DNA of 64,000 bases from positions 102,910,408 to 102,974,407 of the forward strand of contig NC_092379.1 of NCBI RefSeq assembly GCF_030028105.1, in the 5' to 3' direction. A program made the translations under genes and the position numbers. Shown in pieces: positions 25,001 through 28,000 of this stretch (its first letter is position 1; each line of letters opens with the position of its first letter). The notes under the pieces are model-generated. The model was not told the DNA's origin, did no database searches, and saw only the letters and a list, made by a program, of their open reading frames with translations. Source of the DNA: Mobula birostris (taxonomy: Eukaryota).

Positions 25001-28000
25001 GTGTTGCTTTGATATTTTTGATATCTTTATGTAACTACTCTTGTTCAGAAAGCGGTTCTATTTCAGTTTCTTGATGCAAATGTTCTACAAATGATGATCT
25101 TATGACTGCTTTGTGTTATATTTGATCTTGTATATTAATTTGCAAATATGTCATTTCTGCTGGGGAAAGATTAGACATAATAGTACAGTATTGTTCAAAA
25201 GTGTTTGGCATCCTAGATTTTTTTTAATATTAAGGTTTTTTTAGATGGGGTTTTTTTTGTCTTCTACATTAGTGTCAGTAGAAAAGAGCAAATGTTAATT
25301 TTCCAAGAAATTAAATATTTCGTTAAAGTAACATTAAGTAATAGACCAATTTTCAAATTAAAACTTGCTTACTTTGTAGCTATATAGCCCAGTGCATGAC
25401 TAAACAAAGATAACAATCGTGCTAATGATCAATGACAGAATGAGGTGAATGAACTAAACTAATTTACTGAAACATAAACGTTTGTTTAAGGTGATACAAT
25501 AGCTTAACCATCAAGTTATCAATTCTTACACCATGGCAAGAGTGAGCAAAGCAACAAGGCAGTCATCCTGCATCAGCTAGGTCCCTCCAAGCAGAAATTT
25601 TGTAGCAGACAGGAGTTTCAAGATAAGCTGTCCAAGCTCTTTGGAAGAAGCATAACGAAAGGGCGTGATTGAGGAACAGAAATGCAGTGGCTGGCCATGG
25701 AAACTGAGTGCAGCAGACGAGGAATACACCAAACTGATGTCCCTTCTAAATCGGTAATAATTCAGCACTGTTATCAGCTCTGAACACACAGAAATCACTG
25801 GAACCAAATAACACCCCTCTGGTCTGGAGAAGTCTTGTCAGAAGTGGTCTTCATGGAAGAGTTGCTGCCAAATAGTCATTCCTCTGAAGTAGAAACAAAA
25901 CCAAGAGACTCGCCTATGCACAAAAACACAAGGACTGGAGTGCTGACTAATGGCAGCAAGTGCTCTGAGCTGTTGAGTCAAAATTTGAAATTTTTAACTC
26001 AAACAAGAGACAGTTTGTGAATAGAGAGCACTGCATGGATGAGTGTCTACAGCCAAAAGTGAAACATGGCAGAGTTTCCCTGCAGGTTTGGGTCTGCATT
26101 TCTGCAAATGGAGTTGGTGATTTGGTCAGAATTAATGGAATCTTCAATGCTGAGAAGTACAAGCAGATTCTCATCCATCATGCAACACGATCAGAAAGGT
26201 GTCACAACTTCATTCTGCCACAAGTCAGTGACCCCAAAGGTATAACCAAAGTCATAAAGAACTATCTTCGGTGAAAAGAAGAACAAGGAGTGGGCTGGCT
26301 GGTGGCGCAATGACATCAGCATCAGACTCTGGAACGGATGTTCCCGGGTTCGAACCCAATCAGGGCTGCTCCCGAGTACGCTTTCCATCCGTGCCGGGTT
26401 GAGTGTCGAGATCGCAACTTGACCTCGTAAAATAAAAGGGGAAAAATACTGCGAAATGTCTGTGTGAGGAGTAGTGTGCCACACAGTCTCTCTCGCTCTG
26501 TGCCTTGTAAAGGCACGAAAAAAACATTGTCCCACCAACATTCACGCGCAAAAAAAAAGAAAGAACAAGGAGTTCTGCAGCAAATGGTATAGCCTCCACA
26601 GAGTCCTGATCTCAACATCATTGAGGCTGTCTGCGAAAACCTGGGGGGGGGGGGGGGGGGGAGAGAGAAGTAAGGAAGATATCCAAAGTCGACAGAAGAA
26701 CTGTGGCAACTTCTCCAAGATGCTTGGAACAACCTACCAGCGGAGTTTCTTATAAACTGCATAGTGGTTTTAAAAGCAGGGGTGGTCACACCAGATCCTG
26801 ACGAAGGGTCTCGGCCTGAAACGTCAACTGTACCTCTTCCTAGAGATGCTGCGTTCACCAGCAACTTTGATGTGTGTTGGTGGTCACTCCAGATATTGAT
26901 TTTTAGTTTGTTTTTTTTTCCTGATTACTGCTTTTTATTAGTAATTTTTTGATAATTAGAAACTTCATTTCGTTATTTTTGAAAGCATCTTCCCTTTACA
27001 GAATTCTTCTATGTGCCTGTAACTTTTACACACTACTGTACTTGTCACTTTTTTGTTCGCATTTCTCTGCACTTGCATATTGATCTCAAGTTTTTCCTAC
27101 TCATTTCCAGATCAGTATTTGATCCAAATATGTTCTTTACTTCGATTACCCAAATATAACAAGTTTCACTAAAGTGAGCAGTCTGTATACCTAATTGCTG
27201 GAAGTTTGCTAGCAGTCAGCTGTCCATTTTCATTTAACCACTCTAAAGCCAGGTTTGTCTTGAATCGATAATGTCCTAGTAGCTTCCTCAACCAATTTGC
27301 CTCAATTCCCTTCGCAATATCCACTGTAGCATAGAGTTTGCTAGAGGTAAATGACATTGTGTACCAAGGTCTATTGAAAAAGATGTTGAACACAGAACCC
27401 TTTTAATAGTGCTTGAGTCTTATTTCAGCTGGCAAAGTTGTCAAAAATATAAGTGCCTGTGAAATCCAGGAGTATTGAAAAATACTAAATATTGGGAATA
27501 TTTCTTTAAATTACTTAACTTCTAAAAGTAATTAAAAGTTAAGTGAACTTAATTGTATTAACAAACAGGAATAATACTGCAACTGTTTATCTCTATTACA
27601 TGAATGGAGTCACTGAAAGTTTTCCCAAGTCCGAATAGCCATTGGCCTGTTTGGGGCTCTTGCATTCCTTCAAGTATATACTTCTGGACTTTTTGCATAG
27701 GGAAATGCTGACCAATCAATGCAAACTATCTGCATTTCTTGGGGGAAGTCTTACCTGAAAATCACTGAAGAAAAGCACATGTTTGTCAATGCATGCATGA
27801 GTTAAAAATCTATTAATTTTTTTTTCCTTCTTGCAGGGGAAACACTCGCATCTCGTGTTGCTGCCTCACAATTGACATGCTTGGGATGTCCAGAATTGAT
27901 AGCAAAGACCAGACAAGAATATGAGGATATTGCTGCCATGTTGGGCACAGATATGGAATAGTATGTTCTCATTTTCTCTCTTTTTTTGGGGAGGGGGGCT

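Follow-up and report, generated by a model that had tools for sequence, protein, structure and literature searches.

An 82-base hammerhead insert in an intron of Mobula birostris, probably the truncated end of a Penelope-like retrotransposon

Background

Within the 64,000-nt stretch of Mobula birostris DNA analysed here (the window), an 82-base insert consists largely of the core of a minimal hammerhead ribozyme, and the question it raises is whether so short a unit spreads by itself or is a piece of something larger. The first-pass annotation, made from the same DNA, took the former view and described a Penelope-derived, retrozyme-like mini element. We followed up this proposal at the locus and across the genome. 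Signed positions below give the distance in nucleotides from the C of the CUGA box, 0 being window position 26798.

The insert and its host locus

By its flanking exon matches, the insert (26797-26878, + strand) lies in the sense orientation of an intron (23240-27836, + strand) of an OGT-type (GT41) gene, as had been proposed: consecutive exons on either side match positions 430-474 and 476-515 of Glyco_transf_41 on the + strand. We take the gene to be OGT, going by this family match. Inside the intron the insert interrupts an old Tc1-type DNA transposon (25182-27042, + strand), ca. 80% like its paralogues, which has terminal inverted repeats at 25182-25202 and 27022-27042 and a transposase remnant (25849-26271) that matches a Pfam-confirmed Tc1 protein (DDE_3/HTH_Tnp_Tc3_2, E 8e-17). 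The same Tc1 is also split by a second insert (26274-26573, ca. 265 bp) with an A run at its end and an 18-bp flanking repeat, which from its look we presume to be tRNA-SINE-like; ARAGORN found no tRNA in it. More Tc1-type transposase remnants occur in the window at 38949-39375 and 34233-34466.

The insert is bordered by two 16-bp copies of Tc1 sequence (26781-26796 and 26879-26894, both + strand) that differ at 1 of 16 positions. Tc1 paralogues were searched with the right flank, the best 40 of 1,114 candidates being scored, and in all 19 that were fetched (best matches of the 40) the 16-mer is single and the insert absent. Thus, the 16-mer is a target-site duplication (TSD) and not a native doublet of the Tc1, and both the 82-bp interruption and its 16-bp duplication stand as first described. 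The match of the insert to its family runs from 26796 to 26879, i.e., one base of microhomology at each end, the last T of the left TSD copy also matching the element. After ca. 26850 the insert has a 12-bp deletion, lying between 5-base direct repeats, with 293 exact matches genome-wide. A separate subfamily defined by this deletion was considered and rejected, as the deletion recurs over all subfamily backgrounds: in a set of 28 parsed copies it accompanies all upstream variants and all tail variants, it is found in ORF-bearing copies as well, and in one insertion (L031) only one arm has it. From these sequences it reads as a recurrent slippage and not as a lineage.

The insert has relatives nearby. 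An older insertion of a sibling Penelope-like family, with inverted ends, occupies 24426-25007 of the same intron; its hammerhead, at 24910, is in the sense orientation, and the GAAA box there is broken. Fragments of pLTRs from the same or sibling families were also seen at 6741-6812, 28247-28281, 40369-40475, and 58964-59057; none of these four has an intact core, and the copy at 6741 likewise starts at -3.

The parent element

Judged by sequence, the insert comprises the ribozyme and short tail that form the 3' tip of a Penelope-like retrotransposon, 3.5-3.7 kb in length and equipped with a reverse transcriptase (RT) and a GIY-YIG-type endonuclease, and the Penelope origin assigned at first pass is thereby upheld. 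As an abundance probe we used a 22-mer of the element end, 3' of the cut site, which has 73,164 exact matches in the genome. The 29 best relatives of the insert extend upstream by 2 to > 1,490 bases and downstream by 0 to ca. 50, and two of them (L019 and L025) have > 1.4 kb upstream of the 82-mer in common. An upstream ORF contains YIDD and matches RVT_1 (E 1e-5, below the curated gathering cut-off), followed by a C-X4-C-X2-C linker and a YIGET/YISET endonuclease segment (L031, L242). The nearest Atlas clusters of this segment are GIY-YIG (score 0.97; 13-60% of their members carry the family); a Pfam search of the element fragments did not recover GIY-YIG, and a PDB sequence search with the element ORF returned nothing significant. 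Among named proteins, the RT region finds its best relative in one from Chiloscyllium (70% identity), the neighbours of which carry RVT_1 and GIY-YIG.

Full units have a hammerhead at both ends, 3,483-3,717 bp apart. The hammerhead follows the stop codon at a distance of ca. 300 nt and precedes the ATG by 166 nt, and its repetition ahead of the ORF places it in the pLTR. An intact ORF was present in none of the 10 long copies examined, and an active source was not seen among them. The build as a whole, i.e., a single ORF with RT followed by GIY-YIG, partial-tandem pLTRs, an adjacent inverted 5'-truncated copy, and an optional tail (30-40 bp in the published elements), is like that of the EN+ Penelope-like elements of Neptune/Nematis type (PMC8557442, Craig et al. 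2021), as is the linker, given there as CX2-5CxxC. Our placement of the parent near this type is judged from the linker and is putative. As for the surroundings of the long copies, the flank of L031 (5284-9156) contains an LTR-retrotransposon-like gag/pol stretch and that of L032 (4070-8208) an L1-like element, both called from ORFs only.

State of the hammerhead

The minimal hammerhead core (26798-26825, + strand) comprises CUGACGA (26798-26804), an unpaired A, stem II (26805-26817), GAAA (26818-26821), a palindromic ACGU (26821-26824), and a GUC that ends at 26825, with the predicted cut after C26825; all of these parts had been recognized at first pass. The 28-mer core has 39,391 exact matches in the 4.0-Gb genome versus 0 for a reversed control, and a generic core pattern, applied with no stem test, has 91,519 versus 1,498 for its control, so the motif is far beyond chance. 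A scan of 24000-30000 against Rfam, up to E 10, did not find a hammerhead family. Each core position is kept in 58-64 of 64 ungapped family copies, and family stem I pairs UAGUC with GACUG (5 pairs, e.g., L076). The consensus pairing of stems I and II and the core bases are present in the family, and 39 of 98 sampled copies keep the core together with a 4-bp stem I and a 3-bp stem II. Scaled to the 73,164 ends, this gives an estimated ca. 29,000 copies with a complete minimal hammerhead.

The family closely resembles the minimal hammerheads described from Penelope-like elements (PMC4209133, Cervera and de la Peña 2014), sharing CUGANGA/GAAA, the unpaired base before stem II, a palindrome for helix III, a helix I of 4-5 bp, the pLTR site, and mostly solo truncated copies as well as opposite-strand pairs, and the earlier assignment to a minimal type I hammerhead, predicted to depend on dimers, is supported. 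It differs in the pair closing stem II, which is the conserved G10.1-C11.1 in the published set but G-C in only 10 of 64 copies and G-U in 52 of 64 here (the dominant subfamily; the window copy has this wobble, too), and in a short stem II of 3-4 bp. The 91,519 core matches far exceed the ca. 4,000 reported for coelacanth and ca. 9,000 for Xenopus, counts obtained by a different descriptor (PMC4209133). Neither "shark" nor "Callorhinchus" occurs in the main text of that paper.

In the window copy helix I is absent, which sets it apart from the published minimal hammerheads (PMC4209133). The copy matches the family only from -2, the bases at -3 to -6 being target DNA. The 3' strand of stem I (26826-26830, + strand) is present, its partner strand is gone by truncation, and its first base (+28) is A, in contrast to the G of 59 of 64 family copies. 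The pair adjoining the cut site is accordingly a C-A mismatch and the third an A-C, with 0 standard in-register pairs in core-proximal stem I versus 5 in a family copy, and the predicted fold buries CUGACGA. Because stem I has been lost through truncation plus one substitution, the window hammerhead is probably inactive. The first-pass suspicion of inactivity is thus supported, whereas its view of a merely imperfect stem I does not, the 5' strand beyond two bases belonging to the target.

Cutting by the family ribozyme is predicted to require a dimer, and the window copy, lacking stem I, is predicted not to cut. Nearest-neighbour energies, from a model that ignores the catalytic core, were -32.7 for an extended dimer duplex versus -12.3 for a double hammerhead. 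Published minimal hammerheads are described as not cleaving as monomers and as cleaving little or slowly even when built as dimers (PMC4209133). For frog hammerheads, 8 of 9 dimers are reported not to cut (10.64898/2026.07.22.740005).

Where copies begin and end

Copy ends were parsed for 98 of the 100 listed 22-mer sites, all in the first 4.6 Mb of one contig; the sample partly overlaps the 30 loci in which the pile-up described below was first noticed, and both arms of two head-to-head twins were counted. At the 3' side, 35 copies end short (ca. +94), 57 long (at least +121; the reference ends at +129), and 6 between, the ends at ca. +94 and ca. +129 corresponding to the optional 30-40-bp Penelope tail. 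The window copy is of the short-tail class. The 5' ends spread overall from +64 to beyond -600, with 17 at +2 to +66, 10 at -11 to -70, 51 further upstream, and 20 at -10 to +1, i.e., at the foot of the ribozyme, where the window copy is also truncated (-1/-2). From the flanking 125 positions only 2.6 ends would be expected in this last interval (Poisson P 7e-12). By contrast, no more than 2 of 98 lie within 3 nt of the cut site (+27/+28). Given this pile-up at the foot and near absence of ends at the cut, we consider the templates to have been uncleaved.

Inverted pairs show the same preference: we counted 1,143 head-to-head twins with a spacing of up to 30 nt, and of 100 listed arms, assessed by eye, ca. 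87 end 0-7 nt above CUGA versus 44% under uniform truncation. Microhomology between the arms of such pairs cannot be the sole cause, since 7 of 8 short TSD-flanked copies (TSDs of 9-16 bp) also start at -10 to +1. The recurrence of short units of similar size, foreseen at first pass, is thus real, and their 5' ends pile up at the ribozyme foot. As the cut-site triplet is repeated at -3 to -1, joins at the cut site may also arise by microhomology (one example in L154).

Origin of the window copy

We think it very likely that the insert is a 5'-truncated Penelope-like end, copied from ca. 95 bases of uncleaved RNA into a staggered cut in the old Tc1, with a hammerhead that is predicted to be dead. 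The two strands of the Tc1 would have been cut 16 bp apart and, by analogy with the Poseidon element of Anolis, priming at the nearer of two internal RT start sites would have given the short-tail 3' end; ribozyme cleavage would not have been required for insertion, again by that analogy (PMC11167929). The cDNA may have slipped over the 5-base direct repeat, producing the 12-bp deletion, run through the ribozyme, stopped at its foot, and been joined to the target at -1/-2 through the single base of microhomology, and the G-to-A change at +28, a CpG site, would have come later or concurrently. For PAc, the Poseidon of Anolis carolinensis (PMC11167929, Frangieh et al. 2024), two internal RT starts are described that give two 3' ends, as our family also has, together with cutting and extension of both strands, uncleaved RNA as the dominant template, and no reads at the cut site. 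The parent element differs from PAc in that its ATG lies beyond both 3' ends, and its linker points to a different clade.

Other readings can be envisaged, in which either the ribozyme or RNA processing plays an active part. The window copy could cut the OGT pre-mRNA as an intronic ribozyme, e.g., if it paired in cis with the older copy that lies 1.9 kb upstream in the same intron and is likewise sense; the upstream copy has an intact 3' stem I strand, the catalytic boxes of the window copy are intact, and its target-derived upstream bases could, on sequence, pair with the stem I strand of the upstream copy with one bulge. However, the upstream copy lacks G12 and A15.1, which would leave a stem III of 3 bp, an extended duplex and not a hammerhead is predicted for the co-fold, minimal hammerheads perform as poorly in dimers as cited above (PMC4209133; 10.64898/2026.07.22.740005), and the insert is young with no sign of selection, all of which makes this reading extremely improbable. 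An effect on OGT of any kind is unlikely, because stem I cannot form, the core of the other sense copy is broken, and nothing points to selection. It is also very improbable that the 5' boundary was set by self-cleavage or splicing, with the short copies as products of processed RNA. The family does have a branch-point-like heptamer, a pyrimidine tract, and two AGs at -24 to -3 (e.g., L005, L069), the AG end falling exactly at stem I as described for D. virilis Penelope (PMC4209133), and at one genomic junction a donor-like site at -629 is joined cleanly to -2. Nevertheless, cleavage would leave ends at the cut site, where just the two copies mentioned above are found, and the short copies adjoin their own TSD with no upstream exon. 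Tested genome-wide, donors at -629 and -610 gave 4 matches with 1 clean donor-to-acceptor join, that one with microhomology, and a tandem junction of 202 nt discussed below has no GT donor in unjoined copies.

The proposal with which we started sees in the ribozyme-plus-tail unit a non-autonomous element that propagates itself in the manner of a SINE or retrozyme, transcribed from short copies and mobilised in trans, and it draws on more of the data. A quarter of copies start at one place, there is a great abundance of short units in two near-fixed sizes, tandems exist, and retrozymes derived from pLTRs have been described (10.64898/2026.07.22.740005). We nonetheless find it improbable for the window copy, which is a single unit and not a tandem and represents the 3' end of a long RT/endonuclease element. 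Copy ends are continuous and not fixed, the deletion is recurrent, and the upstream flanks of 50 short copies, 22 of them with non-element flank, include none shared in register between distinct loci, once a duplicate entry of one locus and a match on the opposite strand to a different repeat are set aside. The fixed ends of a SINE-like family were not seen, nor, in this small sample of 22 flanks, was descent from short sources. Besides, the Anolis template needed sequence downstream of the RT starts that is absent from short copies, an argument by analogy (PMC11167929). Neither independent movement nor the retrozyme-like label of the first-pass annotation is therefore retained for this copy.

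Tandems are nevertheless part of the family, though rare (17 junction matches at 11 loci for one class and 2 for another versus 73,164 ends). Two insertions, L188 and L190 (G000:C1:23586979 and 24799128), have different TSDs and the same internal junction, giving a 202-nt hammerhead tandem seen in only these two genome-wide; a short derived RNA was probably inserted twice. A splicing origin of this tandem was rejected, given the lack of a GT donor in unjoined copies and its presence at only 2 loci. Tandems of 73-79-nt units occur at L246-L249, L252-L254, and L260-L262, with 3, 6, and 2-3 units; two of these cases are single insertions in which both arms have an identical junction. Movement or expansion is thus seen for some derived mini-tandems, and the family does include short non-autonomous forms. 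The non-LTR retrozymes of Li, Clavereau and Pollet (10.64898/2026.07.22.740005) are likewise pLTR-derived, carry a type I hammerhead, and include a chondrichthyan case; their tandem definition covers the rare 73-79-nt arrays elsewhere in the genome but not the window copy, a single unit with a broken ribozyme that would at most be a "monomer" in their terms.

Why 5' ends stop at the ribozyme foot

Returning to the truncated-end reading of the insert, three causes may underlie the stop at the foot. That a subset of RNAs begins there is likely to about an even degree, a pause or trimming at the stem I hairpin is somewhat less probable, and a block at the splice-acceptor-like site is unlikely. 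In the family, A(-4) lies in a motif that we take to be initiator-like (YYANWYY), with another initiator-like A at -8; the motif at A(-4) is destroyed in the window copy. An RNA start is favored by these A's, by the mode of the 5' ends at -4, and by template jumps that leave from -4 and -8, and at 5 of 11 loci with tandem junctions an untemplated G stands ahead of A(-4) or A(-8). No cap-like excess of G was found at -5 among 100 listed junctions counted by eye (G 24, A 20, C 25, T 31). Of the body-linked copies that reach the ribozyme, 12 of 16 run past it and 4 of 16 stop there; since this is the same quarter as in the main sample (20 of 81), a local pause fits equally well. The sub-claim of an RNA start is further weakened by D. 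virilis Penelope, in which the intron ending at helix I lies downstream of the transcription start (PMC2377424, PMC4209133). A hairpin in the cDNA was tried as trimming signal and discarded: the predicted DNA fold is without stem I, and the RNA stem I fold is no stabler than shuffles (z -0.31).

Tentatively, and with more doubt than confidence, we postulate that transcripts would in part start at the first base of stem I and that the enzyme, priming inside the same leader and copying to the cap, would yield discrete "strong-stop" mini-insertions of ca. 100 or 135 bp, while jumps from that RNA end would seed the 73-202-nt tandems, i.e., nascent retrozymes.

Conclusions

The window copy is a genuine truncated insertion, but an ordinary one. 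Minimal hammerheads in pLTRs, solo truncated dispersal, inverted pairs, tails, and pLTR-derived retrozymes are already in print (PMC4209133, PMC8557442, 10.64898/2026.07.22.740005, PMC6765202); in the openly available papers searched, neither the occurrence of this family in cartilaginous fishes nor a clustering of 5' ends at the ribozyme foot was reported. The copy itself matters little: its ribozyme is broken, and > 70,000 such ends of this known retrotransposon class are present. The family, on the other hand, is a useful natural data set, its young insertions having ends that record how a Penelope-like enzyme starts and stops. That 5' ends gather at the foot and hardly ever at the cut site is relevant to the purpose of the pLTR hammerhead, and the strong-stop reading, if true, would account for solo minimal hammerheads being found in their tens of thousands in animal genomes.
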